From contig CAYGKG010000005.1 of assembly GCA_964350495.1 (NCBI GenBank), positions 25 through 64,024 on the forward strand: a stretch of 64,000 bases of DNA, in the 5' to 3' direction. The notes beneath the pieces are model-generated. The model did not search any database. It worked only from the letters and a program-made list of their open reading frames with translations, and was not told where the DNA came from. Origin of the DNA: an uncultured Alphaproteobacteria bacterium. GTDB lineage: Bacteria; Pseudomonadota; Alphaproteobacteria; SHVP01. The position numbers and the translations under genes were made by a program. Every line of letters begins with the position of its first letter. Positions within the stretch are counted from its first letter, which is position 1. Positions 10,534-32,937 of the stretch are shown here, in pieces.

Positions 10534-10557
10534 CAACACTAAACAGAGGATAACGCC

Positions 10558-17487: not shown

Positions 17488-17943
17488 TCAGCTCGCAAGT
17501 GCTGCGCGCTGTAGTATGGGAGGACTTTCCCTGTCTTGTTCGTCTTCTTGCGGTACGTAGTTGAGCCTCGCCTCCTCAAACGGGAACAACTTCTTGCACG
17601 TACTCAGAGCGCGGTAATAGCTTCCCTTCTGGACGTCAGCCAGAATGTTGGCGCATTGTGCCCGTGCTTCCCGGTCCTTGATCGCCCCTAGAAACTCGTC
17701 CAGGCGTCGCTCGAAGAGCTGGAGGTAAGCACCGCTGTTGGAATCGTCCAGATACAACATTTGGATGGCGAAGTAGATCCGGCGCACCGGCGTACTCGCA
17801 TCGCCCTCCTGCATCACGTCCTTCTCGCGAAGGATCGAGACGTTGTTCTGAATGAGTAGGTGAGAGCGGCGTTCACCGTTGACGACAACTGCGCCATTGA
17901 TGACAAACCGTTCCCGCGGCTTAAGAGTGAGCTTTAGAGCCAT
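17488..17943 (-). CDS. flbT: Flagellin synthesis regulator FlbT (copy 1)
   Basis: MALKLTLKPRERFVINGAVVVNG N-terminus typical of FlbT. Confidence 0.8.
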   Translation of the reverse strand: MALKLTLKPRERFVINGAVVVNGERRSHLLIQNNVSILREKDVMQEGDASTPVRRIYFAIQMLYLDDSNSGAYLQLFERRLDEFLGAIKDREARAQCANILADVQKGSYYRALSTCKKLFPFEEARLNYVPQEDEQDRESPPILQRAALAS

Positions 17944-18144: not shown

Positions 18145-18966
18145 TTACTGGAAGAGGCCCAGGATGGTCTGCGGACCCGCATTGGCAATGGCGAGCGACT
18201 GCACGCCGAGCTGCTGCTGGATCTGCAACGCCTGCAAAGTGGCCGATTCTTGGGCAAGGTCAGCGTCGACCAAGTTACCCAGACCTTCGGTCAAGATGTT
18301 GACGAGAGAAGTGGTAAAGTCGGTTTGAACCTCGATCCGCTTCGCGGCGGCACCGAGGGCAGCAAGCTTATCCGCGACAGAAGTGATCGCGGAGTCGATT
18401 GCCGTAAGCGCGGTAGAAGCGCCAGCACTGGTGGAAAGATCCGTTGAAGCGATCCCAAGCGACGACGACGCCATTGCTTGAGCGCTCACGGTGATCGTGC
18501 TGCCTTCGGCCGTGCTAAGGACCGACGTGTTCGTCGCCCCAGAGCTGATCAGGTTGACCGAGTTGAACTCGGCCGTCGCAACGATCGTGTCGAGCTGATC
18601 GCGCAACGCCTTGAAATCGTTCTGCAACGCGGTGCGCGATGCAGAATCAAGACCTGCCTGATTTGCCTGAACGACCTTCGCCTTCATCTCGACCAGCAGG
18701 TCGGCAATCGCTTTGCCACCCGAGATCGCAACGTTGGTCACGGCTTCACCATTCGCCAAGGCGATTTTCACCGCGTTGGTGCCGGCGATGTCGCCCCGAA
18801 GCCGCGTCGCAATCTGAAAGGTTGCGGCATCGTCTTTGGGGCCGTTCACTTTCAGACCCGTGGTAATCCGGAGCTGAGTCCTTTGCAGCCTCTTCTGTGT
18901 TAGAGAAAGCTGCTCCAACGCGACCATAGCGCCGGAATTGGTGTTGATAGACAGTCCTTGAACCAT
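18145..18966 (-). CDS. Flagellin (273 aa, short Caulobacter-type, Ser/Thr-rich central region)
   Basis: Conserved flagellin N- and C-terminal helices (LSINTN..., ...LQIQQQLGVQSLAIANAGPQTILGLFQ). Confidence 0.9.
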   Translation of the reverse strand: MVQGLSINTNSGAMVALEQLSLTQKRLQRTQLRITTGLKVNGPKDDAATFQIATRLRGDIAGTNAVKIALANGEAVTNVAISGGKAIADLLVEMKAKVVQANQAGLDSASRTALQNDFKALRDQLDTIVATAEFNSVNLISSGATNTSVLSTAEGSTITVSAQAMASSSLGIASTDLSTSAGASTALTAIDSAITSVADKLAALGAAAKRIEVQTDFTTSLVNILTEGLGNLVDADLAQESATLQALQIQQQLGVQSLAIANAGPQTILGLFQ

Positions 18967-19070: not shown

Positions 19071-19892
19071 TTACTGGAAGAGAGCCAGAATGGTCTGCGG
19101 ACCAGCGTTCGCGATGGAGAGCGACTGCACCCCAAGCTGCTGCTGAATCTGCAAGGCCTGCAATCTTGCACTCTCTTCGGCGAGATCGGCGTCGACCAGG
19201 TTTCCGAGGCCTTCGGTCAAGATATTGACCAAGGACACCGTGAAGTCTGTCTGCACTTCGATCCGCTTCGCAGCGGAACCAAGAGCGGCCAGCTTGTCGG
19301 CAACCAACGTAATCGCCGTTTCGATCGACGTTAGAGCCGAGGAAGCACCAGAGCTTGTCGCCAAGGTCGCCGCGTTGATCGTCAGCGTGGTGGTGTCCAT
19401 CTTTTGGGCGCTCACCGAAATGACCGAGCCATCGACGGTGCTGAGAACCTTGAGTTCGCTCGCGCTCTGAAAGATCAGATTGGTCGAGTTGAACTCAGCG
19501 GTGGCAACGATGGTTTCCAACTGATCGCGCAATGCCGTGAAGTCGTTCTGCAAGGCAGTACGTGACGCAGTATCGAGACCGGCCTGGTTGGCCTGCACGA
19601 TTTTCGCCTTCATTTCGATAAGCAGGTCGGCGATAGCCTTTCCGCCCGAAATAGCGACGTTAACGGTGGAATCACCGTTCGCGAGAGCGCCACCGACGGC
19701 CTTTGTGCCGGCAATATCGCCCCGCAGACGAGTCGCGATTTGGAAGGTCGCAGCGTCGTCTTTCGGGCCGTTAACTTTCAAGCCCGTCGTAATGCGAAGC
19801 TGCGTGTTCTGCAGCCTCTTGTTCGTCATGCTGAGTTGTTCCAACGCGACCATCGCGCCGACGTTGGTTTTAATAGAAAGACCTTGAACCAT
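19071..19892 (-). CDS. Flagellin (273 aa), close paralog of flagellin 1
   Basis: About 85% identical to the neighbouring copy at N and C termini; divergent centre. Confidence 0.9.
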   Translation of the reverse strand: MVQGLSIKTNVGAMVALEQLSMTNKRLQNTQLRITTGLKVNGPKDDAATFQIATRLRGDIAGTKAVGGALANGDSTVNVAISGGKAIADLLIEMKAKIVQANQAGLDTASRTALQNDFTALRDQLETIVATAEFNSTNLIFQSASELKVLSTVDGSVISVSAQKMDTTTLTINAATLATSSGASSALTSIETAITLVADKLAALGSAAKRIEVQTDFTVSLVNILTEGLGNLVDADLAEESARLQALQIQQQLGVQSLSIANAGPQTILALFQ

Positions 19893-19985
19893 TTTGTTAC
19901 GTCCTCGTTCTAAGCATCTGGGTCCAGCGTTTTGCTGGCGCCGACGTTTTGCCGGTGGATGGACAATCGTCCGACAACTAGGAAA

Positions 19986-20000
19986 GCAATGCCTATGCCA
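19986..20000 (-). promoter_or_regulatory. sigma54 promoter (minus strand TGGCAT-N5-TTGC) about 90 nt upstream of flagellin 2
   Basis: GG-N10-GC spacing exact. Confidence 0.55.
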
Positions 20001-20245
20001 GGGAACTTCTGACCGGGCTGCATTCCCTCGAAGAAATCGCTAACGTTTTGTTAAGAAAGAGGATTTGCCGGCGGGGAGATCGCTGAAGGGTCGCCGGCGG
20101 TCCCCGATTCAGCGACCCAGATGACCCTTAAGGAAGAATTAACAGGGCAAATATTTCCGACCCGGCAAATCGTGCCGGTAGCAATTGCCTACCGACCGCG
20201 ACATCGCGGGTCGTCAAAGACCGCAGAAGCGTTGATTGGGGCCGG

Positions 20246-20668
20246 TTAGGCCGAGGTGCCAAGACTGCCGATGGCCGAGGCGGCCTGGCTAGGAATGGTC
20301 TGTTGCGTCGGTGCCGACGACAGACCTTCCATAATGGTGCGATTCACCGAAATGAGCGGCTCGAGGTTGGCCTCGCCGCGCAGCACCGTCCGGGAGTGTT
20401 TATCGACCCAAATGGCGATCGAGATAATGTTGGCCTTCAAGCTGTCTGGGAACCGGTTCTCGTTGGATGCGAGATCCATTTGCAGGGTCAGCCAAAGCCG
20501 CCTGTTCCAGTCTACTGCCTTGTAAAAGTCCTGAGATCTCAACCCCTTAGTGGTTGCTGCCTCACGAACGGACATGAGCGCTTTGGTCACCTCGGCGAAC
20601 AAACGGTATTCCGTCTGCCGGGGATTCTCGGTCGAGGCTTGTGTAGCCTTGTATTTATTGACCGACAT
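20246..20668 (-). CDS. flaF: Flagellar biosynthesis regulator FlaF (copy 1)
   Basis: TEYRLFAEVT...NRRLWLTL...ISIAIWVDKHS FlaF signature. Confidence 0.75.
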   Translation of the reverse strand: MSVNKYKATQASTENPRQTEYRLFAEVTKALMSVREAATTKGLRSQDFYKAVDWNRRLWLTLQMDLASNENRFPDSLKANIISIAIWVDKHSRTVLRGEANLEPLISVNRTIMEGLSSAPTQQTIPSQAASAIGSLGTSA

Positions 20669-20862
20669 TCGCGCTCCTTGGGAGGGCCCGCGTCACGCGC
20701 ACCGACAACACGTTTGCGCCGCTGCGTTTGCAGCGTAACCCATCCGCCGGCCGGAATGATAGCGTTGCGAAATAGCCCACGGGGTCGCCCGCGACCCTAT
20801 CGGCCCGCGCCCGGATGATCGTCACATTCTGTGCCCGATGTCGTTTCACGCGAATTTATCAC

Positions 20863-20935: not shown

Positions 20936-21298
20936 CTACGCCGCCAGCCCCTTCATGATCGACTCGTTCACTTGAATAAGGGCGTCGATCGTCACTTCAC
21001 CCTGTTCGGCGAGTTTGGAATGACGCTCCACCCAAATGGCGACCGAGATGATTTGGGCCTTGAGCGGGTCGGGCAACTGGTTCTGCGGTCGCGCCAGGTC
21101 TTCTTCCAACGCGTGCCATAGCCGACGGTTATCGTCCAGGGCCCGCAAGAACTCCGAGTCCTCTTTCACCTTTGCTTTGCTTGCTTCGAGGTCGCGCGTG
21201 ACCTGCTCGAAAAGACGGTACTCGGTCTTGCGCGCATCGAGTTCCGGCGGCGGCGCTAGGATCTCCGCCGCTGCTCCGGTTTGTTGGTTACTGTACAT
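20936..21298 (-). CDS. flaF: Flagellar biosynthesis regulator FlaF (copy 2)
   Basis: TEYRLFEQVT...NRRLWHAL...ISVAIWVERHS. Confidence 0.75.
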   Translation of the reverse strand: MYSNQQTGAAAEILAPPPELDARKTEYRLFEQVTRDLEASKAKVKEDSEFLRALDDNRRLWHALEEDLARPQNQLPDPLKAQIISVAIWVERHSKLAEQGEVTIDALIQVNESIMKGLAA

Positions 21299-21683
21299 AG
21301 TTCAACCTTTCTTTCTCGAAGGGTAGAAGCGACTTGCACGTCATCATCGCGGAATAGAACCGCTGCTCATGCACGTCATCGAGGATGCGATGGCATTTCT
21401 CCAGCACCCCTTTGGTTGAGATGGCGCACATAAAGTCGGTTACGAGATTGGTAAACTCCTCGTAGTAGTGACTCTCGAGTCCACCATCCAGGTACATCAT
21501 CATGATGGTGAAATAGATGCGCTTCACCGGTGTATTCGCTTCGTCCGGTTGGAGGACATCGCGCTCGCGAAGCAACGACACTTGGTTCTCGATAATGAGA
21601 TCCGACCTGCGGTCGCCGTTGATAAGAACACCACCGTTGAGAACGAACTTCTCGCCGGGCTTTAGCGTCAGTTTTAGCGGCAT
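21288..21683 (-). CDS. flbT: Flagellin synthesis regulator FlbT (copy 2); overlaps flaF2 by 11 nt
   Basis: MPLKLTLKPGEKFVLNGGVLINGDRRSDL. Confidence 0.8.
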   Translation of the reverse strand: MPLKLTLKPGEKFVLNGGVLINGDRRSDLIIENQVSLLRERDVLQPDEANTPVKRIYFTIMMMYLDGGLESHYYEEFTNLVTDFMCAISTKGVLEKCHRILDDVHEQRFYSAMMTCKSLLPFEKERLNYVQ

Positions 21684-21725: not shown

Positions 21726-22541
21726 TTATTGGAACAGCGACAGAATGATCTGCGGGGTCGCATTGGCGATCGATAGCGCCTGTACGCCCAGCTGCTGCTT
21801 GACCTGGAGTGCCGTCAGATTGGCGCTCTCCCGGGCCATGTCGGCATCCACGAGGTTGCCCACACCATCTGTAAGGATGTCCACCAGCTTGACCGTGAAC
21901 TCGGTCTGAACCTCCAGCCGCTTGGCCGAGGCACCGAGCGCCGCGAGGCGATCGGAGACCGACACGATAGCCGAGTTGACCGCTGTCAACGCCGCGCTGG
22001 CACCGGAACTGGTGAGCAGGGTGGTTGTATTGATCGCGAGACTCGTCGTGTCCATCTTCTGCGCGCTGACATTGATGATACTGCCGTCGACAGTACTCAA
22101 CACTTGGAACGTCACCGCGCTTTGGTTGATGATGTTGACGCCGTTGAATTCGGCCGTAGCGACGATCGTTTCAATTTGATCGCGCAACGCCGCGAAGTCG
22201 TTATGCAGCGCCGTTCGTGATGCCGCGTCGAGCTGGGATTGATTCGCCTGCACGACTTTGGCCTTCATTTCGATCATCAACTCGGAGATTGCCTTGCCGG
22301 CGTCGATTGCGACGTTAACAGTGGATTCTCCGCCTGCCAGTGCTGTGCCGACCGCTCGATAGCCGGCAATGTCACCGCGTTGGTTTTGGGCGATCGCATA
22401 AGTCGCTGCGTCGTCCTTCGGTCCGTTCACGCGCAGACCGGTCGTAATGTTCAGCTGGGTCTTCTCCAGCCTATTGTTTGTCGCGTTTAGATTCTGGAGA
22501 GCAATCGCCGCTCCCAGATTGGTATTTACCGACAAGACCAT
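21726..22541 (-). CDS. Flagellin (271 aa), more divergent third paralog
   Basis: Flagellin N/C helices (...LQVKQQLGVQALSIANATPQIILSLFQ). Confidence 0.9.
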   Translation of the reverse strand: MVLSVNTNLGAAIALQNLNATNNRLEKTQLNITTGLRVNGPKDDAATYAIAQNQRGDIAGYRAVGTALAGGESTVNVAIDAGKAISELMIEMKAKVVQANQSQLDAASRTALHNDFAALRDQIETIVATAEFNGVNIINQSAVTFQVLSTVDGSIINVSAQKMDTTSLAINTTTLLTSSGASAALTAVNSAIVSVSDRLAALGASAKRLEVQTEFTVKLVDILTDGVGNLVDADMARESANLTALQVKQQLGVQALSIANATPQIILSLFQ

Positions 22542-22891: not shown

Positions 22892-25852
22892 ATGAACGCG
22901 CCCGCTCAGGAGTTCTTCGCCGCTGGCCTGTCGCACCACCGCGCCGGCCGTATCGAGGAAGCCGACAAATACTATCTACAAGCGATCGAGGCCGATCCTG
23001 CCTGTTGCGATGCTTTGCTCAACCTCGCGGGCATTCGTATTTCGGCGAATCGTCTCGACGAAGCCGAAGCCCTGCTGACGACGGCACAGGCGGTCAGACC
23101 GGTCGACACCAAGATCCTCACAGCGCTCGCGAACGTTTACCAGGCGAAGGGCGACTACGCCCAATCTGAGTCATACTACCGCGACGCGATCGCGCGCAGC
23201 CCCGATCTCGCCCTTGCGCACGCGAACCTGGGGCGTCTCCTCTATCGAACCGGTCGGTCGGCAGAAGCAATCGCGAGTTATCTTGCCGCGCTCGATCTCG
23301 ACCCGACGTTGGCGACGGCCCACGCCAACCTCGGCGCCGCCCTCGTCGCCAACCAGCGCTTCGACGAAGCCGAAATGTCCTTAGGCCTCGCACTGAAGCT
23401 CGCCCCCCGAGACCCCGATATCCATCTCAACGTCGGTCACCTGCGGTTCGCCCGAGAGGATTACGCCGGTGCGCTCGAACACTTCACCCGCGCCTCAGAG
23501 TTACGGATGGGGTGGGCCACCGCCCATCTCAATATCGGCGCCGCGCTCCACCGTTTAGGCAAGTACGAAGCAGCCGAGCGGGAATTCAACCGTGCCGTCG
23601 CGCTGGACCCGAACAACGCGGAAGCGCTTCGAGGGCTCGGTACAGCATTGATTTCATTGGATAAAATTGAAGCCGCCGAGAAGGTCCTGGTGAAATCGGA
23701 TGCGCTTGCTCCCGATCATCCACAAACCCAATTTCTTCTCGGTCAGGTCTTCGTTGCGACCAAGGACTTCGAACGCGCAGTCCGGCACAATACCGGTGTC
23801 GTTCAGCGCCTACCTAATCTCCTCGAAGGTCGGCTGAACCTCGGCCACGCGCTTCAAGCCTTGCACCGTCATGCCGAAGCGATCGAGCAATTCCAGGCAG
23901 CGATCGCCATCGACGCGACTTCGGCTCAAGCCTTCAACAATCTCGGCAATTCGTTGGGCGCCGTCGGCCGGAACGACGATGCGCTCGATGCCTACCGAAA
24001 GGCGATTGAGATCGACGCCACGCTGGCCGTCGCCCATATCAACTTCGGCAATACCTTGCGGCAAATGGGCCGTCATGGAGAGGCATTCGAGGAATTTCAG
24101 CTAGCGATCGAGATCGACCCCGACGATCCCCGCGCGCTGAACGGCATGGGACTAGCTTACCAAGCGTTCAACCGGCAAGCGGAGGCAATCGAAACGTTCA
24201 AGCGCGCCATCGCCGTCGACGACTCCTACCCGGAGGCGATGAACAACTTAGCGATCGCCTACCAGCAACTCGGCCGCTATCACGATGCGATATCGACCTA
24301 CAACGACCTGACCAAGAAGCACCCGGAGCTGTCGCAGGCCTATTTCAACCTAGGCAGCCTTCTCCAGCTCCTGAGCCGCCACGACGAAGCAGTAACCGCG
24401 TTTCGCGAAGCGTTGAACCGGAACGTAGGCAATAACGTCGTCTACCCCTACCTGGCCCACGGCTTGATGCAGCAGTGCAGCTGGGACAACCTCGAAGCAA
24501 TCATTTCCCGCGTGATCGAGAACACCGAACACGAAATAGCCCGCGGCCAAGGCGTCTCGATTTCGCCCTTCGGTTTGCAAAGCATGCCGGCCAGTCCGGA
24601 TCTTCGTTTTCGGACCGCGCAGCACGTCGCGCGACGCGCCGAACGCGAGGTTCAGGACAGCCGTAAGCGGCTGGGCCCCCTCACCTACAAACACCCAACG
24701 GACGGCAAACTGAAGATCGGCTTTCTATCGCCGGATTTCCGCTTCCATAGCGTCGCCGTCGCCTTCCAAGGTGTCCTCGAACATCGCGACCCCGAGCGAT
24801 TTCACTATGCCGCCTATGCCGTCACGACGTTCGGCAAGGACGATTTGACCCGGCACTTTTCGGAAACATTCGACAGTTGGACCGATATCACGCCGATGTC
24901 CTATGTCGATGTCGCAAGAAAGATGGTCGATGACGGTGTCAACGTGCTGATCGATCTAGCCGGTCACACCCGCGGCGGCAGCCCCGAGGTCCTCGCCCTT
25001 CGTCCCGCGCCCGTTCAAGCCCACTGGCTGGGGTTTTCGTCGACCACCGGCGCCGCGTATATCGACTATCTGATCACCGATCGGATCCAGCTTCCGCCGG
25101 AAGACCAACAGTACTGTAGCGAAAAACTGGTCTATCTCCCCCACACCTTCATGGCCGCATCGCGGCCCCCCGTGGCGGTGGAAACGTTTACGCGCGCAGA
25201 CTTCGGCTTGCCGGACGACGGGTTCGTTTTCGCCAACTTCAATTCGCACTACAAGTTCTACCCGACGCTCTTTGCGATTTGGATGAGGCTGCTGCGCCAG
25301 ATTCCAGGGAGCGTGATGTGGTTCATGTCAGGAACGAAAACCAGTCGAAGAAACCTCAAGCGAGAGGCGCAGGCCCGTGGAATCGATCCCGGCCGTCTCG
25401 TGTTCTCCGACACGATCGCCCATCCTCGCCATCTTGCCCGCTTGCCCTTGGCCGATCTCGCCCTCGATAACCTGCACCACGGCGGCGGCGTAACGACCAC
25501 GGACTCGCTTTGGGCTGGGGTGCCGGTTCTGACGCTCTACGGCGACACACCGCCGGCACGAAACGGCGCCACGTTGGTTAGCGCCGTCGGCGCCCCGGAA
25601 CTGATCGCCTACTCGCTCGACGAGTACGAAAAGAAGGCAACGATGTATGCGCGCGAACCGGATCGACTCGCCGCGCTACGGGCGAAATTGCGCGCCAATC
25701 GGGACACCGAGCCACTGTTCGATATCGACCGGCTGACGCGCCACTTTGAGAGCGCCTGCGAGATGATGTGGCAGAACTATCTTGCCGGGAACGAACCTCG
25801 CCCCTTCGATGTCCCGGCCCAACCGGCCACGTCGAGAAAACGCGCTGGCTAG
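22892..25852 (+). CDS. TPR-repeat protein fused to a GT41 (O-GlcNAc transferase/SPINDLY-like) glycosyltransferase domain; putative flagellin glycosyltransferase of the FlmG type
   Basis: N-terminal ~500 aa of TPR repeats; C-terminal KIGFLSPDFRFHSV...LIDLAGHT...FANFNSHYKFYPTLFAIWMRLL...HGGGVTTTDSLWAGVPVLT is OGT-like GT-B; adjacent to three Ser/Thr-rich flagellins. Confidence 0.7.
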   Translation: MNAPAQEFFAAGLSHHRAGRIEEADKYYLQAIEADPACCDALLNLAGIRISANRLDEAEALLTTAQAVRPVDTKILTALANVYQAKGDYAQSESYYRDAIARSPDLALAHANLGRLLYRTGRSAEAIASYLAALDLDPTLATAHANLGAALVANQRFDEAEMSLGLALKLAPRDPDIHLNVGHLRFAREDYAGALEHFTRASELRMGWATAHLNIGAALHRLGKYEAAEREFNRAVALDPNNAEALRGLGTALISLDKIEAAEKVLVKSDALAPDHPQTQFLLGQVFVATKDFERAVRHNTGVVQRLPNLLEGRLNLGHALQALHRHAEAIEQFQAAIAIDATSAQAFNNLGNSLGAVGRNDDALDAYRKAIEIDATLAVAHINFGNTLRQMGRHGEAFEEFQLAIEIDPDDPRALNGMGLAYQAFNRQAEAIETFKRAIAVDDSYPEAMNNLAIAYQQLGRYHDAISTYNDLTKKHPELSQAYFNLGSLLQLLSRHDEAVTAFREALNRNVGNNVVYPYLAHGLMQQCSWDNLEAIISRVIENTEHEIARGQGVSISPFGLQSMPASPDLRFRTAQHVARRAEREVQDSRKRLGPLTYKHPTDGKLKIGFLSPDFRFHSVAVAFQGVLEHRDPERFHYAAYAVTTFGKDDLTRHFSETFDSWTDITPMSYVDVARKMVDDGVNVLIDLAGHTRGGSPEVLALRPAPVQAHWLGFSSTTGAAYIDYLITDRIQLPPEDQQYCSEKLVYLPHTFMAASRPPVAVETFTRADFGLPDDGFVFANFNSHYKFYPTLFAIWMRLLRQIPGSVMWFMSGTKTSRRNLKREAQARGIDPGRLVFSDTIAHPRHLARLPLADLALDNLHHGGGVTTTDSLWAGVPVLTLYGDTPPARNGATLVSAVGAPELIAYSLDEYEKKATMYAREPDRLAALRAKLRANRDTEPLFDIDRLTRHFESACEMMWQNYLAGNEPRPFDVPAQPATSRKRAG

Positions 25853-25883: not shown

Positions 25884-27590
25884 CTAGGGCCTTGGATCGG
25901 TGTCAGCGATCGCGCCTGCCAGGTGCCAGGGACGCCCATCCACTAAGTCCGTCGCGAAGAAGCAGAACCGGTTAGCAGACGCCATCGGATAAATTGGCGC
26001 GGTCATCACCGGCGCATCGCGATCCGCGTATGCGGCGATCGGCCAGCTTAGGGTCCGCGCACGACGTTGCCCGTCGGCCCGTTGGGTGCCCTGGGTGAAG
26101 TCCTTGTCCAGCGTGACGATCAAGCTGGTTCCCGCGCGCGATGGCTCGGTCGCGACCACGAGGTTGAGCCGGTTTTCCGCTGCACGTTCCAGCAGACCGG
26201 TATCGATTTCCCAACGTTCTAGAACGCGCGTCGGCACACCGACAATTGCGGCATCCTTCAAGGCGAGCAGCCTGAACGATTCGACAATCGCCGCGTCGCC
26301 GCCGACCACGAGACCGACCCGGCCCTGCGGCAGATCGATCGTGCCGAAGCCATCGGCATAGGCCGTAACCCAAGGATGACGCGCACAGGTATGCACGGCG
26401 TCTTGATGGAACACGACCCCATCACGCCCGATCAAGACACCCCGGTGCATGAACTTGCCGCCATCCTCATGCACCACCGATGCGGCCACAAGGCAATCCC
26501 GCTGAACTGCGGACAGTGCCGCGCGCACCGCCGCGACGCCGTCGCGACAGATTGCCGCCGCCTTCGGCGCGTCGCTGACTTTGTCGCTAGGAAGAAAGGC
26601 GAGCTCCGGCAACGTCAGAAATTCGACACCGCGCCCAATCGCATCGGCCACGGCGGCGAGAAGGTCGCCCCGCGCCCCGTTCACAACCCCGGCCAGCAAC
26701 CTCTCCGCACCGGCGATGTCGCGGTGGGGAGTCGGTGCCGCCGCGATCGCCCCATAGAGTTCCGGCCGCCGGTCGGCAAAGAGATCCGAGCCGTCCGGAC
26801 GCCCTTTCTTCGTCGCCTCCTCCAGGTCGATATCGGCCCAGACCACGGCCTCGGTCTCGACCGGCGCGCGGGCCAGCACGGTGCCGTCGGGCGCCACAAT
26901 CTGACTGGCGCCGCCGCCCATCATCTCGCGCGCATCCTGCGGATCGCGGTCGCCGGCAAGGGCCGGCACGAGCGCTTCGGGAACCAGCCGCCCGACCTTG
27001 TTGGCAGCGGCGACGAAGACCTTGTTTTCGGCTGCGCGCACCGGTAGGTGCAGCCAGTCCTCGTCGGGCGCAAAGGAACACAAGCTGTTGGACAAAAGCT
27101 GCGCGCCGCGCAGCGACAGGCCGCGCGCGACCTCCATCGACACACCGTCCATGCAGGAATACATACCGATCTTGCCGAACGGGGTCGCCATGATGTCGGC
27201 CGGCCGATCAGGCTTTTCGAAGAAGAAATTTTCGCCCGCAATGAGAAAGCTCTTGCTCGATTCGCCCAGCATGTCGCCTTGCGGCCCGAACATGTGGTTG
27301 GTATTGCGAACGGCATTATTGCGATGGCGCACGGTAACGTTGACCTGGATCATGCATTGCAGTTCCTTCGCCTTGTCGGCGATCGCCTTAAGGAAGGCAC
27401 CGTCGGTCTGCTCGGCGACATCGTAGCAATGCTCGGAATCGCGGTAGAGTGGCGGGTGATTGCAGTATTCCGGCAAGACGATCAGGTCCGGATCGCAATC
27501 GGCCTGCGCCTTGTCGATCATCCGGAGGCAGGTTTGTAGGTTCGCCTCGACGTCGTCCGTCACCTCGAACTGAGCAACCGCTACGCGCAT
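25884..27590 (-). CDS. Tandem double carbon-nitrogen hydrolase (two nitrilase-superfamily domains in one ~569-aa protein)
   Basis: Two successive CN-hydrolase-like segments (VAVAQFEV...LPEY... and a second ...LTLPELAF...); RBS GGGAAGGAAG before the ATG at 27590. Confidence 0.6.
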   Translation of the reverse strand: MRVAVAQFEVTDDVEANLQTCLRMIDKAQADCDPDLIVLPEYCNHPPLYRDSEHCYDVAEQTDGAFLKAIADKAKELQCMIQVNVTVRHRNNAVRNTNHMFGPQGDMLGESSKSFLIAGENFFFEKPDRPADIMATPFGKIGMYSCMDGVSMEVARGLSLRGAQLLSNSLCSFAPDEDWLHLPVRAAENKVFVAAANKVGRLVPEALVPALAGDRDPQDAREMMGGGASQIVAPDGTVLARAPVETEAVVWADIDLEEATKKGRPDGSDLFADRRPELYGAIAAAPTPHRDIAGAERLLAGVVNGARGDLLAAVADAIGRGVEFLTLPELAFLPSDKVSDAPKAAAICRDGVAAVRAALSAVQRDCLVAASVVHEDGGKFMHRGVLIGRDGVVFHQDAVHTCARHPWVTAYADGFGTIDLPQGRVGLVVGGDAAIVESFRLLALKDAAIVGVPTRVLERWEIDTGLLERAAENRLNLVVATEPSRAGTSLIVTLDKDFTQGTQRADGQRRARTLSWPIAAYADRDAPVMTAPIYPMASANRFCFFATDLVDGRPWHLAGAIADTDPRP

Positions 27591-27625
27591 GACGCTTCCT
27601 TCCCGTTCCATTTGGTCCTCGGCGT

Positions 27626-28321
27626 TCAGGACGCCGCAACAACCGTTTTCCTAAGCTCGGCCAGATCATAGTAGGTTCCGTCGCGATCCGGACTCCCCTC
27701 GACCTCGACACGGGTCAGAATCATGTCCGGGCCCGTCGTCCAGATCCGCAGGCCAAAACCGAATTGGGTGTGCCAAATAAACTCCGAACTCGGGAAATCG
27801 CCCGCGCGGGTCGTGCGCACCTCGTCCTTCACGTATTCGGCGGTATTTTCGGTATGCCCGCCGTGGTCCAGGGACTTGCCGTTCCAGGTGTGCGACACCG
27901 TGTGGATGTAAATCGGCTGGGGTTCGCGGTGGGTACGGTCCATGAAACACATCTTCCACGCTTCGTGCATGACTGGATGGAAGCCAAGGGTCATATGCGG
28001 CGGCGCCGGAAATGCGGCGTGATCCATCTCGCCTGTGTGGTTCCACACCCACGACAGCAGTTTATCGCCAACCACACGGCGCAACACGGTGCCCTGGGCT
28101 TCGCCTTTGAAAAAGAGGCGCCCCATCGCCTCAATGGGACGCCAGTCGGCGCCTACCATCTGGTTCACGTCGCGCAGCAGGTCCCCTTTGGGCGACTTGG
28201 TAACGGTCCGCATCGTGCGGCTGCCATCGGGGTTTCGAGTGATGAGGAAGCGCTCGTAATCGTGCCGGCTACCGTCCGGTAGAACGATGTCGAGCTGCCC
28301 CTGATAAATCACGATGCTCAT
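27626..28321 (-). CDS. Hypothetical 231-aa protein (no family recognised) inside the sugar-modification operon
   Basis: ORF with strong SD (GGGGGAG) at the ATG 28321; His/Trp-rich. Confidence 0.45.
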   Translation of the reverse strand: MSIVIYQGQLDIVLPDGSRHDYERFLITRNPDGSRTMRTVTKSPKGDLLRDVNQMVGADWRPIEAMGRLFFKGEAQGTVLRRVVGDKLLSWVWNHTGEMDHAAFPAPPHMTLGFHPVMHEAWKMCFMDRTHREPQPIYIHTVSHTWNGKSLDHGGHTENTAEYVKDEVRTTRAGDFPSSEFIWHTQFGFGLRIWTTGPDMILTRVEVEGSPDRDGTYYDLAELRKTVVAAS

Positions 28322-28384
28322 CTCGCGCACTCCCCCGCCAAACGAGAAGACTAGCATTCGGCGGGAAAAGCGAAAAACGCCGGC

Positions 28385-29248
28385 CTAGGCCGCCAAGACG
28401 CTCCGGAAGACGTCCTTGGCACTTGGCGGCTGAAGATCGAATTCATCCACCTCGACCTGCATGTCGAGACTGGAGAACCGCGGCAGGGCGTCGAAGCCAA
28501 TGGAACCGGGGATTGCTTCGACCGGACTAATCAGTCGCGGGTCGGCGCCTTCAATTTCCGCAACAACGTGCGCTAGGGACAAATAGCTCGAGTCTTCCTG
28601 CGAAGAGGCATGGAATACCCCTGACAGCCGGTCAGAAAGAACCATCTCGATCGTTTCGAGTGCAAAATTCATGGAAATCGGCGCCAGTGGGAGATTGCTG
28701 AACGGCCCGATCCGCCTACCGGCTTTTAGATCGCGGCGCCAGTTTTGCACAATTGCGGCGCCCGGCGTCATGACCTTGGTGAGCCGCACAACGGCGCCGG
28801 TGCCGCGGTCGATAAGGTGGCGCATCCCCGCCTCCGCCAACGCCTTGTGTCGCCCGTATTCCGAGACCGGACACGGACTGCTGTCGCGGTCCCGCCGCGC
28901 GATAGCGCCGTCGAACACTTGATTGCTCGATAGATAAAGAACATAGGCGCCCTGCGCCGCCATCTTCCACGCGAGCCCGACGGTGCCACGGACATTGACC
29001 TGCATCGCGCGGGCCGGGTCCTGAGCGCAGTCGAGGATCGACGTCACACCGGCACAGATCAGGACCGCGTCAACCTCGGGCAGGACTTCCCAACTGGCCG
29101 GGATCGATAGGTCGAGGAAGTGGAGATTGCTGTCCCGCCGTCGGCTGGTTCCGACGACCGTCACGCCCTGCGCCGCGAAATGGGCACAGGCCGCTCGACC
29201 CAGCGCCCCATCGGCGCCGACGACAAGCAGCCTGTTGGGCCACATCAT
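28385..29248 (-). CDS. NAD(P)-dependent sugar epimerase/reductase (short-chain dehydrogenase/RmlD-like Rossmann protein)
   Basis: LLVVGADGALGRA...GVTVVGTSRR Rossmann motif; start overlaps the upstream methyltransferase stop (ATGA). Confidence 0.6.
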   Translation of the reverse strand: MMWPNRLLVVGADGALGRAACAHFAAQGVTVVGTSRRRDSNLHFLDLSIPASWEVLPEVDAVLICAGVTSILDCAQDPARAMQVNVRGTVGLAWKMAAQGAYVLYLSSNQVFDGAIARRDRDSSPCPVSEYGRHKALAEAGMRHLIDRGTGAVVRLTKVMTPGAAIVQNWRRDLKAGRRIGPFSNLPLAPISMNFALETIEMVLSDRLSGVFHASSQEDSSYLSLAHVVAEIEGADPRLISPVEAIPGSIGFDALPRFSSLDMQVEVDEFDLQPPSAKDVFRSVLAA

Positions 29249-29934
29249 CTCTTGGGACCGCAGCACAGCGCGAAATAGTAGTGCGCCATTTGGTAGAAAC
29301 CGGTGTGCACGACCTCGTCGTTCATCGAGAACACGAACACATTCCCGAAATACCTGGCGAGCAGGTCTTTGAGTTCGGTCGCAGTCTTACAATTGATGTG
29401 CCCGGCTTTGCTGGCCGGACTGGCATAGGCTTGCGAGGCCAGGCTAGGTGAACCGACAATCAAAACGCCGGAGTCGGTCAGCGACCCGGCGAGGTTCGCC
29501 ACAAAGGCTTCCTCGTTCGCAGGATCGATATGTTCGATCACGTCCAACGTGTAGGCGCCGTCAAACCGATGGGGCTGCGCCGGCGGATAGGGTCCGGTCA
29601 GCATGTCGTGGATTGCCGTCGACATCGGCCAAGCCGGCGCCATGCGCTCTTCGGCATCGGCAACGAACACCGGATCGAAGTCCAGCGCGGTCACCCACTC
29701 CACTTCCTGTTGCACAAGGCGCGTCCCGAAGGCATCGGCGCAACCGACCTCCAGCACATTCTGGGCACCGCTCAACATCTTAGCCACGAACTTGTAACGC
29801 GCCAGGAGAATAGCCAAGCGGCGCGGATCGTCGTGCCAGACTTGGTTGGTCATCAGACCGAGCCGGGTAACGCCGTCGTCGTTCGCGATATCCAATGCGG
29901 CCTGGTATTGCGGTTCGCGGGTTTTGGCGGTCAT
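29245..29934 (-). CDS. Class I SAM-dependent methyltransferase
   Basis: VLEVGCADAFGTRLV (motif I) and a typical MTase fold. Confidence 0.6.
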   Translation of the reverse strand: MTAKTREPQYQAALDIANDDGVTRLGLMTNQVWHDDPRRLAILLARYKFVAKMLSGAQNVLEVGCADAFGTRLVQQEVEWVTALDFDPVFVADAEERMAPAWPMSTAIHDMLTGPYPPAQPHRFDGAYTLDVIEHIDPANEEAFVANLAGSLTDSGVLIVGSPSLASQAYASPASKAGHINCKTATELKDLLARYFGNVFVFSMNDEVVHTGFYQMAHYYFALCCGPKR

Positions 29935-29953
29935 GGCGCAGTCTTTCCAGATG

Positions 29954-30619
29954 CTAGGAGAAGTAGATGCAACCGTAGTCGCCGGTGTACCCGGCCTGGG
30001 CGAACGCCCATTCCCACTCGGCCGGTTTCATGAAGGCGCGGCAGGTCAACTGCCAGTAGAGAAGGTTCGCCTTCTCTATCTCATCGCGGTAGGACTCGAT
30101 GGTCACGTGCGCAGCCCGGCGGGAGACTCGATCGATCTCCTTTAGCGCCGCATGCAATTCATAATTATATAGATTATGCAGTGTGTTAATGGAGTAAACG
30201 AAATCAAAAGATGAGGTATCATAGGGCAGCCGGTCGGCCACCGAACCAACGGTCAGCCCGTCGCGCACTTCTTCCTTTGCGTGTGCGATGGCGTAGTCCG
30301 AGATGTCTATTCCCGCGACCGTCGCCTGCGGCAGAACCTGGGTGAATTCGTAGAGAAGAAACCCCTTGCCGCAACCGATGTCGAGTATCCGCGCGTCAGG
30401 TTTGAGACCGTAATGCCCAACCATCGCTTCGGCAACGGGTCGCCAGCGCCCGTCATAGCGATACCCGCCGAAGCCGTAGCGACGGTCACCATCCCAATAG
30501 TCTTCGCCATAGCGGCAAGCCACCTCGGCGCAGGCAGCTTTGTCGTGCTCGACGACGCGCTGAATGTAGTCGCGCTTGGTCGCGGTGTGCAAACGCCCGA
30601 CGAAGTCGACGTAGGCCAT
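29954..30619 (-). CDS. Class I SAM-dependent methyltransferase (the 389-aa ORF in the track is over-extended; true start is the ATG at 30619 overlapping the upstream stop)
   Basis: ARILDIGCGKGFLLYEF motif I; ATGA overlap with the upstream gene. Confidence 0.65.
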   Translation of the reverse strand: MAYVDFVGRLHTATKRDYIQRVVEHDKAACAEVACRYGEDYWDGDRRYGFGGYRYDGRWRPVAEAMVGHYGLKPDARILDIGCGKGFLLYEFTQVLPQATVAGIDISDYAIAHAKEEVRDGLTVGSVADRLPYDTSSFDFVYSINTLHNLYNYELHAALKEIDRVSRRAAHVTIESYRDEIEKANLLYWQLTCRAFMKPAEWEWAFAQAGYTGDYGCIYFS

Positions 30620-31029
30620 CAGACCGCACGCGCCATTTCGGTGGGGGCGAACGCGTTCACCCGCAAGATATCCTCGAAGCGGCCGATATCGACCGCCGAC
30701 CGCAACGTCAGATTCTCTAGCGCGGCATGGAGTTCGCGGCCCTGCTCCAGAATCTGAGTGTAGATACGCCGCCGTTTGGACTCGTCGTTTGGCAGCATGA
30801 ACATCGAGAACAGAATGACCCCATCCAAGGTTGGAAGCTCTTCCATCACGGCATTCAGCATCATGTAACAGCCCGGCATCGCGTATTCCGTGGCGGACAG
30901 TTTGAACGCGATGCCGTTGCGTTGGGCGTAGTCGCGGATTACCAAGTTCTGGACTTGCTGAGGCGTACGTTCGCCCCGCACCGGCCGCGACCCGATATAG
31001 CCGCGGTAACCGCCCTGCATCGCGGTCAT
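30619..31029 (-). CDS. Small (136 aa) sporadic-carbohydrate-cluster protein (LIC12192-family-like), translationally coupled to the oxygenase and methyltransferase
   Basis: Gene trio oxygenase / small protein / MTase with overlapping stop-start codons; family assignment from memory, unverified. Confidence 0.4.
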   Translation of the reverse strand: MTAMQGGYRGYIGSRPVRGERTPQQVQNLVIRDYAQRNGIAFKLSATEYAMPGCYMMLNAVMEELPTLDGVILFSMFMLPNDESKRRRIYTQILEQGRELHAALENLTLRSAVDIGRFEDILRVNAFAPTEMARAV

Positions 31030-31892
31030 GCGAACCCTCCGGGCAATTGGTATTCCATACCGATCCGCGTCGCGGGCCGCAGCGTGATCGGTTCGAAGAA
31101 CTCGCCCAGACGTTTGTCCGCATAGGGCGAAAACAAACTCTTGAAGCGGCAGTTCATCGACCAGCGGGATTCGGACTCCACGTTGATGCGGTTGCCGTGC
31201 ATCAGCGATTGGGCGAACAGCAGAACCTCACCGAACCGTATATCGATCCATTCGACATCGGGTTCGATGGCGCGAAACAGATCCTCTGCGCTGCGGTCGG
31301 CGAATTCGTGCAGCCGCGCGCTCATCGCCCGGTCCGGTTCGGGGGGCAAGAGATACATGGATTTGGTCCTGTAGCAGTCGACGAGTGGCAGCCAGACGAC
31401 GATTTCAAACGGCGAATCGCCGCTCCAGACGTCGGCATGGACCGGTAACAGCGAGGAATCGTCTGAGGGTAGCTGGATCGACAGGTTGACCCGGCGCTGC
31501 ATCGCCAGTTCGTTGCCGACCAATGCCTCGATACTGCGTCGCGCCAGGCTGAAATAGGCCTCGCGCAGCCACGGGCTGGCGTTTACCGCATTGTGGACCG
31601 CAAGACGCAGCGCGTTGAGGTCGCTGACGCTGACCTTGGTATGAATGCCGTTGAGAAACGCCGCCGCAGGGCCCGCATCGGTGAGGCCAAGGTGCCGAGC
31701 GGCTTGCATGGTGACGGCGGCCTGGATGCGCTCCAACTGCGCAGGATCCTCGACCGGCTGAATGACGTAGCCGTCGCGGAGAAACCGAGCACCGAGCGCC
31801 GCGTCGGCGAGAGAGAGAAAATCGCCGGATTGCGTGTCCTGCGGTAGTTTGTCAGGGGCGCGTGGGGTGGCTTGGGCAGCCTGAACACTCAT
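31026..31892 (-). CDS. 2OG-Fe(II) oxygenase (PhyH-like; sporadic carbohydrate cluster type)
   Basis: HADVWSGDSPFEIVVWLPLVDC with an HxD iron-binding motif; ~288 aa. Confidence 0.55.
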   Translation of the reverse strand: MSVQAAQATPRAPDKLPQDTQSGDFLSLADAALGARFLRDGYVIQPVEDPAQLERIQAAVTMQAARHLGLTDAGPAAAFLNGIHTKVSVSDLNALRLAVHNAVNASPWLREAYFSLARRSIEALVGNELAMQRRVNLSIQLPSDDSSLLPVHADVWSGDSPFEIVVWLPLVDCYRTKSMYLLPPEPDRAMSARLHEFADRSAEDLFRAIEPDVEWIDIRFGEVLLFAQSLMHGNRINVESESRWSMNCRFKSLFSPYADKRLGEFFEPITLRPATRIGMEYQLPGGFA

Positions 31893-32016: not shown

Positions 32017-32937
32017 CTAGTCTTCCTCGCGCCCCTTGGCCGCAACCATCAACGTATCGAAGGGTGCATCCTCGGTGGCCGCGGGCGGGCGGAATTGGTC
32101 CTCCCCCTCCTCGGCCTCGTCGTCGGCGGCCGTCCGAGCGTTCGCTTTGGTTTGGCGGGTTTCCAGCGGTTCTTCAACCGAGATCCCTGCGGCTTGCGCC
32201 GGCTCCTCGTCAACCGCTTCGAGGGTTTCCGCCGCCGCGTCGGTGGCTTCGGCTTCGGCTTCGGCTTCGGCTTCGGCTTCGGCTTCGGCTTCGGCTTCGA
32301 CCTCAGCGTCCGGATCGTATTCTTCCTCCTCGTCGCCGTCGGTGTTGGGCTTCTCGCCTCGACTTGCAGCGGCCTGCGCTTCGGCATCGCGTACGAGGTC
32401 CGCTGGCGGTTCCGCGCTCAAAAGCCCAGCGGCCTTCAATTCGTCGATACCCGGCAAGTCTTGGACGTCCTGGAGGCCGAAGTGTTCGAGGAAGTCCTGG
32501 GTCGTGCCATAGGTCAGCGGCCGACCCGGCGTTTGCTTGCGCCCGCGTAGCCGCACCCAGCCCGACTCCATCAAGACATCCAACGTGCCTTTGCTGAGGG
32601 ACACCCCGCGCACCTCTTCGATTTCGGCGCGCGTGATCGGTTGGTGGTAAGCAATAATCGACAGCGTTTCGACGGCGGCGCGGCTCAATCGGCGCTGCAC
32701 GGTCTTTTCCCGCTCCATCAGGAAGGCTAGATCGGGCGCCGTTCTAAACGCCCAACCGCCGGCAACCTGCAGCAGGACGATCCCGCGTTCGGCGTAAAGC
32801 GCCGTCAAATCCGCCATGAGTGCCGGCACGTCGGTCTCGTCGGGCAACCGGGCCGCTAGGCTCGCTTCATCCAACGGCTCGACCGCCGCGAACAACAAAG
32901 CCTCGGCCATGCGGATCAACTGGGCGTCGTCACTCAT
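32017..32937 (-). CDS. scpB: Segregation and condensation protein ScpB with acidic C-terminal tail containing (EA)10
   Basis: ALLFAAVEPLDEASLA..., winged-helix ScpB core. Confidence 0.85.
   Translation of the reverse strand: MSDDAQLIRMAEALLFAAVEPLDEASLAARLPDETDVPALMADLTALYAERGIVLLQVAGGWAFRTAPDLAFLMEREKTVQRRLSRAAVETLSIIAYHQPITRAEIEEVRGVSLSKGTLDVLMESGWVRLRGRKQTPGRPLTYGTTQDFLEHFGLQDVQDLPGIDELKAAGLLSAEPPADLVRDAEAQAAASRGEKPNTDGDEEEEYDPDAEVEAEAEAEAEAEAEAEAEATDAAAETLEAVDEEPAQAAGISVEEPLETRQTKANARTAADDEAEEGEDQFRPPAATEDAPFDTLMVAAKGREED
32245..32300. repeat. Perfect hexanucleotide tandem repeat (GGCTTC)x9-10 inside scpB, encoding (EA)n on the minus strand
   Basis: Seen directly in sequence. Confidence 0.95.

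Follow-up and report, generated by a model that had tools for sequence, protein, structure and literature searches.

Maf-type flagellin glycosylation islands, such as those of Campylobacter, Aeromonas and Magnetospirillum, place sugar-biosynthesis and tailoring genes beside the flagellin genes, and Maf systems use nonulosonates. FlmG, a TPR plus GT-B enzyme, is required for flagellin modification and is sufficient for it in a pseudaminic-acid-producing host (PMC7591256), and flagellin glycosylation by FlmG in Caulobacter crescentus and Brevundimonas depends on Pse or Leg (PMC7591256; bioRxiv 10.1101/2022.03.25.485807). TIGR04323 and TIGR04324 are sporadic carbohydrate cluster families that have been named and whose function is not known; neither a paper on them nor a link from the cluster to a flagellin glycosyltransferase was found in the open-access PubMed Central and bioRxiv full text searched. 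ADP/GDP-heptose biosynthesis (GmhA, HldE) and the tailored heptoses of surface glycans follow a logic of ketose phosphate isomerisation, anomeric phosphorylation and nucleotidyl transfer, then tailoring. To our knowledge, flagellin heptosylation by a GT41 enzyme has not been reported.

The 64-kb stretch of DNA analysed here (the window) resembles the FlmG systems in several respects: it is a flagellar locus of an alphaproteobacterium, its flagellins are short (~273 aa), FlaF/FlbT regulators and sigma-54-type flagellin promoters are present, and a soluble bipartite TPR + GT enzyme is encoded beside the flagellin genes. The likeness between the two enzymes is one of architecture, FlmG having 596 aa and the window enzyme 986 aa with a GT domain that matches Pfam GT41. 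FlmG systems need Pse or Leg, whereas the window has no nonulosonate genes, and they lack counterparts of the 2OG oxygenase, TIGR04323 protein, two methyltransferases, RmlD-like reductase and amidase encoded here. Unlike the Maf-type islands, the window contains no Maf gene.

Seven minus-strand genes convergent on a glycosyltransferase gene

Three flagellin genes, all encoding proteins with Flagellin_N and Flagellin_C domains, lie on the minus strand of the window: flagellin 1 (18145..18966, 273 aa), flagellin 2 (19071..19892, 273 aa) and flagellin 3 (21726..22541, 271 aa), the last being a presumed glycan acceptor. All three are Ser/Thr-rich, in flagellin 3 in a central segment, and sigma-54-like sequences precede flagellin 3 (TGGCACGTCCATTGC at 22628-22614) and flagellin 2 (TGGCATAGGCATTGC at 20000-19986). 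The plus-strand gene at 22892..25852 encodes a 986-aa protein with many TPR repeats and a Glyco_transf_41 domain (258 bits, Pfam), for whose GT domain no NCBIfam equivalog was found. By analogy with the FlmG architecture, this TPR-GT41 protein is a putative flagellin O-glycosyltransferase.

Open reading frame listing and translation confirmed seven closely packed, co-oriented minus-strand genes at 25884-31892, as described in the initial annotation, which converge on the TPR-GT41 gene, itself preceded in the window by the three flagellin genes. In order of transcription these are oxy (31026-31892, 288 aa), SCC1 (30619-31029, 136 aa), MT1 (29954-30619, 221 aa), MT2 (29245-29934, 229 aa), SDR (28385-29248, 287 aa counted from the MMWPN start), unk (27626-28321, 231 aa) and CNH2 (25884-27611, 575 aa). 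Upstream of this unk start lies a GGGGGAG Shine-Dalgarno-like run, and homologues measure 230-232 aa. The first three genes had been described as all ATGA-coupled; this held for oxy/SCC1, but SCC1 and MT1 overlap by 1 nt in TGATG. The MT2/SDR coupling was correctly called and is an ATGA overlap. Gaps of 19 nt separate MT1 from MT2, 63 nt SDR from unk (27 nt if a longer start is used) and 14 nt unk from CNH2, and 31 nt lie between the CNH2 stop and that of the convergent TPR-GT41 gene. We infer from this packing that the seven genes are co-transcribed as one operon. The arrangement is not due to chance, since the same gene order was found on many independent contigs.

The upstream boundary is the minus-strand housekeeping gene scpB (32017..32937; SMC_ScpB, 166 bits). 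The operon sits at the border of the flagellar gene region, between flagellar genes and housekeeping genes. LPS and capsule linkage was looked for, and no LPS, capsule, polysaccharide assembly or export genes were found within the 64-kb window. The region upstream of the operon contained only a sigma-54 look-alike, and its spacing is wrong; compared with the sigma-54-like flagellin promoters, it lends no support to co-regulation.

The five core genes and their recurrence beside flagellin genes

The oxy product is a TIGR04324 2OG-Fe(II) oxygenase (329 bits, cut-off 150; NCBIfam). It had no Pfam match and no relative in the PDB by sequence or profile search, and more than 4108 homologues were found. 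H152, D154 and H232 were invariant in 16 of these and form a putative iron-binding triad. SCC1 belongs to TIGR04323, the LIC12192 family (153 bits, cut-off 55). Its predicted fold is that of the serine-recombinase (resolvase/invertase/integrase) catalytic domain, at 8-15% identity; SCC1 lacks the DNA-binding domain, and conservation of the putative nucleophile Ser is not strict. Given its genomic role in a sugar cluster, the likeness to recombinases would be a resemblance of fold only.

MT1 is a class-I SAM methyltransferase (Methyltransf_31/11/25 at 61-62 bits, Pfam). Among solved structures it comes nearest to generic methyltransferases, one of them a D-glucose O-methyltransferase (31 bits). 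Adjacent, translationally coupled oxy and SCC1 genes above their curated cut-offs, followed by a methyltransferase gene, are as in the sporadic carbohydrate cluster, the pair being coupled in this way in nearly all related loci too, and the initial annotation had equated the trio with TIGR04323/04324/04325. The first two assignments stand. MT1, however, is not TIGR04325, a family absent from the best 25 of its 47 NCBIfam matches, and those listed score far under their cut-offs. MT2 is a second class-I SAM methyltransferase (Methyltransf_25/23/11 at 29-32 bits, Pfam), for which a PDB search returned no relative. SDR matched RmlD_sub_bind at 86 bits and Epimerase at 72 bits (Pfam), and TIGR01214 at 92 bits, under the cut-off of 224. 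In the PDB it is related to MAT2B, dTDP-4-dehydrorhamnose reductases and GDP-6-deoxy-D-mannose reductase, and it carries GADGALG (residue 11) and YGRHK (residue 131). SDR is read as an RmlD-like reductase of nucleotide sugars that depends on NAD(P). The core enzymes retain their SAM and NAD motifs. Pfam and NCBIfam assignments agreed with the earlier statement that no gene of the operon is a canonical Pse/Leg core enzyme.

Nearly all of the 80 related genome loci contained the oxy/SCC1/MT1 trio, with MT1 homologues (200-440 bits) beside oxy and SCC1 and mostly directly downstream; MT2 and SDR co-occur with it in 22 of the 80, giving a five-gene module. Among the 18 informative five-gene loci, those with at least 3 kb of downstream flank, nine had a convergent GT41 gene within 2.6 kb of the module (L010, L013, L014, L016, L017, L022, L028, L056 and L086), and the other half had no nearby GT41 and flagellin genes. 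Flagellin, FlbT or FlaF genes lay beyond the convergent GT41 gene in seven loci, oxy in the syntenic loci was 58-78% identical to that of the window, and a convergent GT41 gene was also seen in metagenome loci L094 and L096-L098. Across all these genome and metagenome loci the GT41 homologues scored 680-1775 bits. Recurrence of this synteny in independent genomes supports the flagellin-glycan link and the earlier placement of the operon beside a flagellin-associated GT41 enzyme. Conservation of the neighbourhood, proposed as a check in the initial annotation, did not extend to the trio as such: flagellar genes were missing within 10 kb in most of the 80 loci, and the module is therefore not flagellar by nature.

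Two inserted genes, unk and CNH2

The unk product is a 231-aa soluble beta-barrel protein with no Pfam or NCBIfam family, and the neighbourhoods of its homologues (46-80% identity) are varied, none of them sugar-related. CNH2 matched CN_hydrolase at 157 bits in two stretches (Pfam). A fused double CN-hydrolase had been annotated, and the two stretches bear this out, but only the N-terminal domain keeps the catalytic triad (E48, K120 and C153). This domain is akin to PH0642 and N-carbamoylputrescine amidase and shares its fold family and Glu-Lys-Cys triad with nitrilase-superfamily amidases, among them the glutaminase domain of NAD+ synthetase; equivalog scores were all far under the cut-offs. 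Unlike those amidases, CNH2 carries a fused second CN-hydrolase-like domain without a Cys nucleophile: C153 aligned with G437, at a position where the consensus across 24 family members is Gly/Asp. The N-terminal domain thus looks active and the C-terminal domain catalytically degenerate. The tandem arrangement, earlier counted among the least precedented parts, is not unprecedented, since the family comprises 140 representative clusters at E <= 1e-30, and many of these are full-length proteins of some 550-580 aa.

CNH2 was found within the sugar operon only in relatives of at least 72% identity. In contrast, 74 relatives at 49% identity or less lie in a conserved catabolic cluster with RCC-reductase-like, FAD monooxygenase, aldehyde dehydrogenase, MFS transporter, Amdase-like and alpha/beta hydrolase genes. 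L013 and L014 have CNH2 and no unk, and in L016, L017, L022 and L056 SDR adjoins the GT41 gene with neither. This distribution marks unk and CNH2 as recent lineage-specific insertions, present at this position only in close relatives of the window, and the seven genes are not, as originally viewed, a single conserved pathway.

It is possible, although we consider it doubtful, that the operon is composite, only the five core genes being glycan-related and unk and CNH2 being read-through genes of unrelated small-molecule (amide) metabolism that became inserted between the end of the operon and the convergent GT41 gene. The foreign neighbourhoods of their homologues and the loci lacking one or both genes would fit such an arrangement, as would a weak terminator-like hairpin at the SDR stop, but the hairpin was not significant. 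Moreover, CNH2 has a composition like that of the neighbouring genes, and its position, strand and close spacing were kept among relatives at 72-84% identity. In two other lineages, too, this junction is taken by amidases, here non-homologous to CNH2: an AstE/AspA-type enzyme immediately after SDR (L021 and L174) and an Asparaginase_2 immediately after GT41 (L087). Their presence is a hint that an amide-cleaving step is genuine.

The donor sugar and the proposed pathway

In other genomes the core mostly makes up the distal half of a longer cluster, whose front half comprises HldE-like, GmhA-like and SDR genes, two unknowns and a split transketolase. As in ADP/GDP-heptose biosynthesis, the module in sister loci follows GmhA-like and HldE-like genes; unlike that pathway, these loci add the split transketolase and two unknown proteins. 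Front-half scores all fell far short of the equivalog cut-offs (HldE 171, cut-off 521; GmhA 105, cut-off 209), and the HldE-like protein has its domain order reversed. Other sugar-type neighbours in related loci were DegT, sugar C-methyltransferase, GFO/IDH/MocA, radical SAM and GLF genes. The window departs from the usual sporadic cluster in that no homologue of any front-half protein was found within its 64 kb, and scpB sits where other genomes have the split transketolase and heptose-type genes. Likewise, scpA-scpB lie upstream of oxy, and the front half is absent from the upstream flank, in L010, L011, L013-L015, L094, L096 and L097. The continuity of the core with GmhA-like, HldE-like and split-transketolase genes in sister lineages makes an NDP-heptose-type donor, possibly chain-extended or branched, most likely, rather than a CMP-nonulosonate.

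The decorated nonulosonate proposed initially is accordingly not favoured. That the module decorates a Pse/Leg-type sugar made elsewhere in the genome, for transfer by an FlmG-type GT41 enzyme, seems improbable: no Pse/Leg core gene of the NeuB or CMP-transferase type was found in the window or in the Pfam/NCBIfam-annotated loci, and the core's usual partners point to a route from aldose 1-phosphate to NDP-sugar. The dependence of characterised FlmG enzymes on Pse or Leg would speak for it, as would a faint match of MT1 to the Pse-associated methylase TIGR03587 (25 bits, cut-off 112), and in the window's clade, whose locus has no heptose-type front half, the core could use another precursor.

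Still less probable is that the module serves O-antigen, capsule or another glycoprotein and that its flagellar adjacency is incidental. The NCBIfam name links TIGR04323 to Leptospira LIC12192, which we take to be located in the O-antigen region, some related loci carry an ABC exporter, GT4 genes and many additional sugar-tailoring genes, and most of the 80 loci, as noted above, have no flagellar genes nearby. However, the convergent GT41-flagellin synteny, the Maf gene next to the L092 cluster, which represents another class of flagellin GT, and the lack of polysaccharide assembly or export genes in the window favour a flagellar role. A decaying remnant, in which a clade that lost the front half keeps a non-functional pathway tail, is very improbable, given that all seven genes are intact and, across several MAGs and metagenomes, conserved at 73-98% amino-acid identity, that catalytic motifs are kept, and that L035 and L037 retain the trio, an SDR, GT41 and flagellins likewise with no front half nearby.

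The initial interpretation is thus partly supported, and we hold it somewhat probable that the region is a co-transcribed glycan-tailoring operon serving the adjacent flagellin glycosyltransferase. In the proposed pathway, the core would act on a nucleotide-activated sugar. Oxy would carry out an oxidation dependent on Fe(II) and 2-oxoglutarate, in the simplest case a hydroxylation, with SCC1 probably its partner subunit; MT1 and MT2 would perform two SAM-dependent methylations and the RmlD-like SDR an NAD(P)H-dependent keto-reduction. CNH2, gained in the window's clade, would most likely add one amide-hydrolysing step through its N-terminal domain, the C-terminal pseudo-domain being structural, and unk, perhaps a passenger, would be a more recent insertion. 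The TPR half of TPR-GT41 would bind the three short, Ser/Thr-rich flagellins, and the GT41 half would attach the finished sugar to them in the cytoplasm, prior to export. Beyond this locus, the comparisons indicate that the five-gene module is a widely conserved, uncharacterised sugar-tailoring unit that recurs beside flagellin genes.

Gene organization and genomic setting of the operon

ORF listing and translation of positions 25884-31892 placed seven genes on the minus strand, as the initial annotation had described. The first of these, the oxygenase gene oxy (31026-31892, 288 aa), overlaps SCC1 (30619-31029, 136 aa) in an ATGA motif, and SCC1 overlaps the methyltransferase gene MT1 (29954-30619, 221 aa) by one base in TGATG; the earlier reading of this trio as coupled throughout by ATGA holds for the first junction but not for the second. 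The second methyltransferase gene, MT2 (29245-29934, 229 aa), lies 19 nt beyond MT1 and is joined by an ATGA overlap to SDR (28385-29248, 287 aa). Spacers of 63 nt and 14 nt precede unk (27626-28321, 231 aa) and the double CN-hydrolase gene CNH2 (25884-27611, 575 aa), respectively. Convergent with CNH2, at a stop-to-stop distance of 31 nt, is the plus-strand gene for a protein with TPR and Glyco_transf_41 domains (22892-25852, 986 aa), designated GT41. From their spacing, the seven genes would be co-transcribed. GC and GC3 were uniform over the operon and no gene stood out, and there was therefore no compositional sign of very recent horizontal transfer. The GT41/CNH2 and SDR/unk spacers folded no better than shuffled sequences (z -0.62 and -1.25, respectively), the sigma-70 scan was at background level, terminator-like sites were no more numerous than expected, and no Rfam model reached its gathering score anywhere in the window.

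Flagellar genes occupy positions 1-22.5 kb of the window and encode FliP, FliM, FliL, FlgF/G/A/H/I, DksA and three flagellins of 271-273 aa with Ser/Thr-rich central segments. Two copies each of FlbT (17488-17943 and 21288-21683) and FlaF (20246-20668 and 20936-21298) are interleaved with the flagellin genes, the whole group lying immediately upstream of GT41. The flagellar region also contains, in the window's highest-GC stretch (0.678), a minus-strand ORF (2906-6418) for an Ala/Pro-rich product of 1170 aa; its N-terminus is signal-peptide-like, and Pfam gave no match for it. On the other side, scpB, scpA, an M50 peptidase gene and uvrA are 5′ of oxy, and housekeeping genes fill the rest. No LPS or capsule genes were found in the window.

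Canonical sigma-54-type boxes (TGGCAC-N5-TTGC) were found on the minus strand at 20000-19986, 22628-22614 and 20877-20863, about 75-95 nt 5′ of flagellins 2 and 3 and, for another, 5′ of the flaF region. The look-alike upstream of oxy (31936-31923) has a spacing one base too short, and sigma-54 co-regulation of the operon with the flagellins is therefore unsupported.

Most of the annotations given in the initial reading were upheld by Pfam and NCBIfam family scans. The oxy product matched TIGR04324 with 329.2 bits (cut-off 150), residues 36-283 corresponding to model positions 3-247 of 248. Residues H152, D154 and H232 were invariant in 16 homologues and form a putative His-x-Asp...His iron-binding triad. 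More than 4000 oxy homologues were found, none of them by tblastn against the plasmid collection. SCC1 matched TIGR04323, the LIC12192 family, with 153.4 bits (cut-off 55). Both families are catalogued and functionally blank; no paper on TIGR04323, TIGR04324, LIC12192 or the "sporadic carbohydrate cluster" was found in the open-access literature searched. Sequence and profile searches returned no structure for oxy and no PDB relative for oxy, SCC1 or MT2. For MT1 and MT2, the scans identified class-I methyltransferase domains of a generic kind. The proposal that MT1 belongs to TIGR04325 (LIC12133-family methyltransferases), which would have completed the trio, failed: this model was not among the 25 best of 47 NCBIfam matches for MT1, and it was also missing from the matches of MT2, all listed matches of the two proteins scoring 45 bits or less. 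SDR matched Pfam RmlD_sub_bind (86 bits, cut-off 27) and Epimerase, and fell below the RmlD equivalog TIGR01214 (91.9 bits, cut-off 224).

SCC1 is predicted to have a fold like that of the serine-recombinase catalytic domain, standing alone without a DNA-binding domain, and showed no sequence-level match to serine recombinases. Its invariant residues were G7, R9, G10, Y11, Q24, Q27, N28, R32, E48, Y49, C54 and H101; Ser14, a possible counterpart of the nucleophile, was present in 30 of 34 homologues. That SCC1 is the recombinase of a mobile element was rejected, the DNA-binding domain being absent, the serine not invariant and the gene a constant companion of the oxygenase gene. This unbroken adjacency, with an overlap here, suggests that SCC1 may act as a partner of or accessory to oxy. 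As a lead, SCC1 would offer an example of a resolvase fold put to a use other than on DNA.

Conservation of the core and its linkage to flagellin genes

A scan with the oxy alignment, limited to one genome per species, gave 347 relatives, and the window proteins were searched against the ORFs of the best 80 loci. The oxy-SCC1 pair was present in essentially all 80, the TIGR04323 gene adjoining the TIGR04324 oxygenase gene in nearly all, and MT1 homologues (200-440 bits) were found in nearly all. The full five-gene arrangement oxy-SCC1-MT1-MT2-SDR was present in 22. The single seven-gene pathway originally envisaged is thus conserved in its five-gene core, but the two added genes, unk and CNH2, are lineage-specific.

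Eighteen of the five-gene loci had at least 3 kb of downstream sequence, and in nine of these a convergent GT41 homologue lay within 2.6 kb, followed in seven by flagellin, FlbT or FlaF genes. The trio was likewise joined to GT41 and flagellins in three variant loci (L035, L037 and L087), and in L092 the cluster was beside a gene for a Maf-type flagellin glycosyltransferase (56-2044, minus strand) and a GT4 gene. These arrangements point to a recurrent, though not universal, linkage of the module to flagellin glycosylation through two classes of glycosyltransferase. Judged by the refuting condition set out in the initial annotation, the flagellar connection first proposed is partly supported by this synteny; many of the examined loci show no flagellar genes. 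The operon very likely tailors a flagellin glycan, its conserved core being five genes of a widespread, uncharacterised nucleotide-sugar cluster.

Several other genes accompany the module. The cluster of L092, a transketolase-oxygenase-TIGR04323 arrangement, also includes a sulfotransferase gene and DUF6016. In about 15 loci (among them L025, L031, L046, L078, L080, L085, L035, L037 and L048) the trio has a conserved radical-SAM gene with it, whose products score 425-907 bits against each other. This gene is often placed between SCC1 and MT1, so that the module has another common form.

Genes at the junction of SDR and GT41

The product of unk had no match in family scans. Its 85 homologues are 180-275 aa long, mostly about 230 aa, and all of those named in their sources are called hypothetical. 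The AF2 model (pLDDT 93.9) is a closed soluble beta-barrel most like the structures of DUF1849 and DUF1089, both of unknown function. At the SDR/GT41 junction unk was found only in L010-L012 and L095, SDR being followed directly by CNH2 in L013, L014, L094 and L096-L099, and the six Pfam-annotated neighbourhoods of unk homologues (46-80% identity) were unrelated to sugars or flagella. The gene is probably a passenger. In L008, an unk homologue (10001-10693, 58% identical) and another TPR-Glyco_transf_41 gene (19464-20693) are about 9 kb apart, which may be coincidence.

CNH2 matched Pfam CN_hydrolase (156.8 bits) over two stretches. The N-terminal domain keeps the Glu-Lys-Cys triad (E48, K120 and C153) at the conserved positions of the family. 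The C-terminal domain lacks this triad: G437 aligns with C153, the nucleophile position has a Gly/Asp consensus throughout the 24-sequence family alignment, and an invariant histidine (H407), judged by eye to replace lysine, is roughly at the place expected for the catalytic Lys. These substitutions mark the second domain as a predicted pseudo-enzyme. The fusion had been placed among the least precedented parts of the operon, but it is not unique: 140 representative clusters matched at E <= 1e-30, including many full-length proteins of about 550-580 aa. Double CN-hydrolases with one domain apparently dead thus make up a large, unstudied family.

In a metagenome scan, CNH2 was part of the sugar operon only for relatives of at least 72% identity. 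The relatives of 49% identity or less (n=74) belong to a strongly conserved, catabolic-looking cluster that encodes an RCC-reductase-like protein, an FAD monooxygenase, an aldehyde dehydrogenase, an MFS transporter, an Amdase/maleate-isomerase-like protein, an alpha/beta hydrolase, an SDR and an ACAD-like protein. These distant double CN-hydrolases head the cluster in L100-L173 (for example L102, 7971-17694, and L107, L115 and L117). From its gene content, the cluster has the look of a so far uncharacterised pathway that breaks down an amide or N-heterocycle. The occurrence of unk and CNH2 at the junction only in near relatives, and in other neighbourhoods elsewhere, argues that both are lineage-specific insertions. 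In a related MAG, the annotation of the three downstream genes goes no further than hypothetical, CN-hydrolase family and TPR protein.

Other amidase-type genes were found at the same place. An AstE/AspA-type deacylase gene directly follows SDR in L021 (10126-11481) and L174 (13571-14581); the two copies are 60% identical, so they probably reflect a single acquisition. An Asparaginase_2 gene directly follows GT41 in L087 (7027-7962). With CNH2, amidases of three unrelated folds thus share this position, in a sample of three lineages, which hints that the pathway may include a step that cleaves an amide or generates ammonia. It is also an argument for CNH2 being functional in this operon, although an insertion. 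The junction is a possible case of non-orthologous displacement among amidases.

Candidate sugar donor and comparison with FlmG

Where upstream sequence is available, most loci have a further group of genes ahead of oxy, the front half of the cluster. It includes an HldE-like protein whose nucleotidyltransferase and PfkB kinase domains stand in reversed order (171 bits, HldE cut-off 521), a GmhA-like SIS isomerase (105 bits, cut-off 209), an SDR epimerase/dehydratase, a split transketolase and two unknown proteins, one of which has an APH-kinase-like match in L092. Variable extras are DegT aminotransferases, NDP-sugar C-methyltransferases, GFO/IDH/MocA oxidoreductases, radical-SAM enzymes and UDP-galactopyranose mutase. 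Just 5′ of the full cluster in ten loci (L016, L017, L022, L027, L032, L040, L043, L072, L076 and L086) is a gene for a protein of about 940 aa with SBBP beta-propeller repeats (267-3080, minus strand, in L022).

The predicted chemistry of the cluster is that of a heptose-type nucleotide sugar, from ketose phosphate through aldose phosphate and aldose-1-phosphate to NDP-sugar. Extension or branching of the carbon chain could be the work of the thiamine-diphosphate enzyme. As a lead only, this logic is like that of the lincomycin octose route and of ThDP-dependent branched-sugar formation.

The front half is not in the window. In L016 and L017, the nearest outgroups of the window clade (65% oxy identity), front half, core, GT41 and flagellin form one block; in the window clade itself (L010-L015, L094, L096 and L097), scpA-scpB stands directly 5′ of oxy instead. 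The full sporadic carbohydrate cassette was accordingly not found here, no split transketolase, HldE-like or GmhA-like genes being directly 5′ of oxy, and none of seven L022 front-half proteins matched any ORF of the 64-kb window (phmmer, E <= 1e-3).

The initial annotation had suggested a decorated nonulosonate or other glycan while finding no canonical Pse/Leg core enzyme. The latter point was borne out, about 50 ORFs across the window giving no Pfam or NCBIfam match to PseB/C/H/G/I/F or LegB/C/H/G/I/F. The nonulosonate itself fared less well, as the linked genes of the sister loci point to a heptose-type donor, which is the more likely of the two. A fuller proposal can be made: that GT41 places on flagellin an undescribed NDP-activated higher-carbon sugar, derived from heptose, extended or branched by transketolase, then hydroxylated, doubly methylated and reduced, with an amide-linked group trimmed by interchangeable amidases (the CN-hydrolase here, AstE/AspA or Asparaginase_2 elsewhere), and with the 2OG oxygenase working together with a repurposed serine-recombinase-fold protein. 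In this full form we consider the proposal unlikely to be correct.

Among known systems, FlmG is the nearest functional analogue. This TPR and GT-B enzyme is essential for the modification of flagellin and suffices for it in a pseudaminic-acid-producing host (PMC7591256); a Leg-dependent FlmG has also been described. The GT41 protein of the window has the FlmG architecture, with TPR repeats and a Glyco_transf_41 match of 258 bits, and a matching genomic context; its GT domain matched no NCBIfam model. The systems would differ in the donor, which is Pse or Leg for FlmG, whereas the genes linked to the window's GT41 argue for a different sugar. No relevant open-access paper joining flagellin with transketolase, heptose or GT41 was found, nor anything relevant on the Azospirillum flagellin glycan.

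Flagellin glycosylation islands are well known, and the characterised alphaproteobacterial FlmG uses pseudaminic or legionaminic acid. Here an FlmG-like TPR-GT41 gene recurs in linkage with the common, uncharacterised "sporadic carbohydrate cluster". The role of the cluster in a flagellin glycan is proposed on genomic grounds, and the linkage gives it an assayable read-out in that glycan's mass and structure. The linkage further suggests that flagellin glycosyltransferases of the bipartite type may accept non-nonulosonate donors; if the higher-carbon-sugar reading were true, the donor range of FlmG-like flagellin glycosyltransferases would extend beyond nonulosonates.
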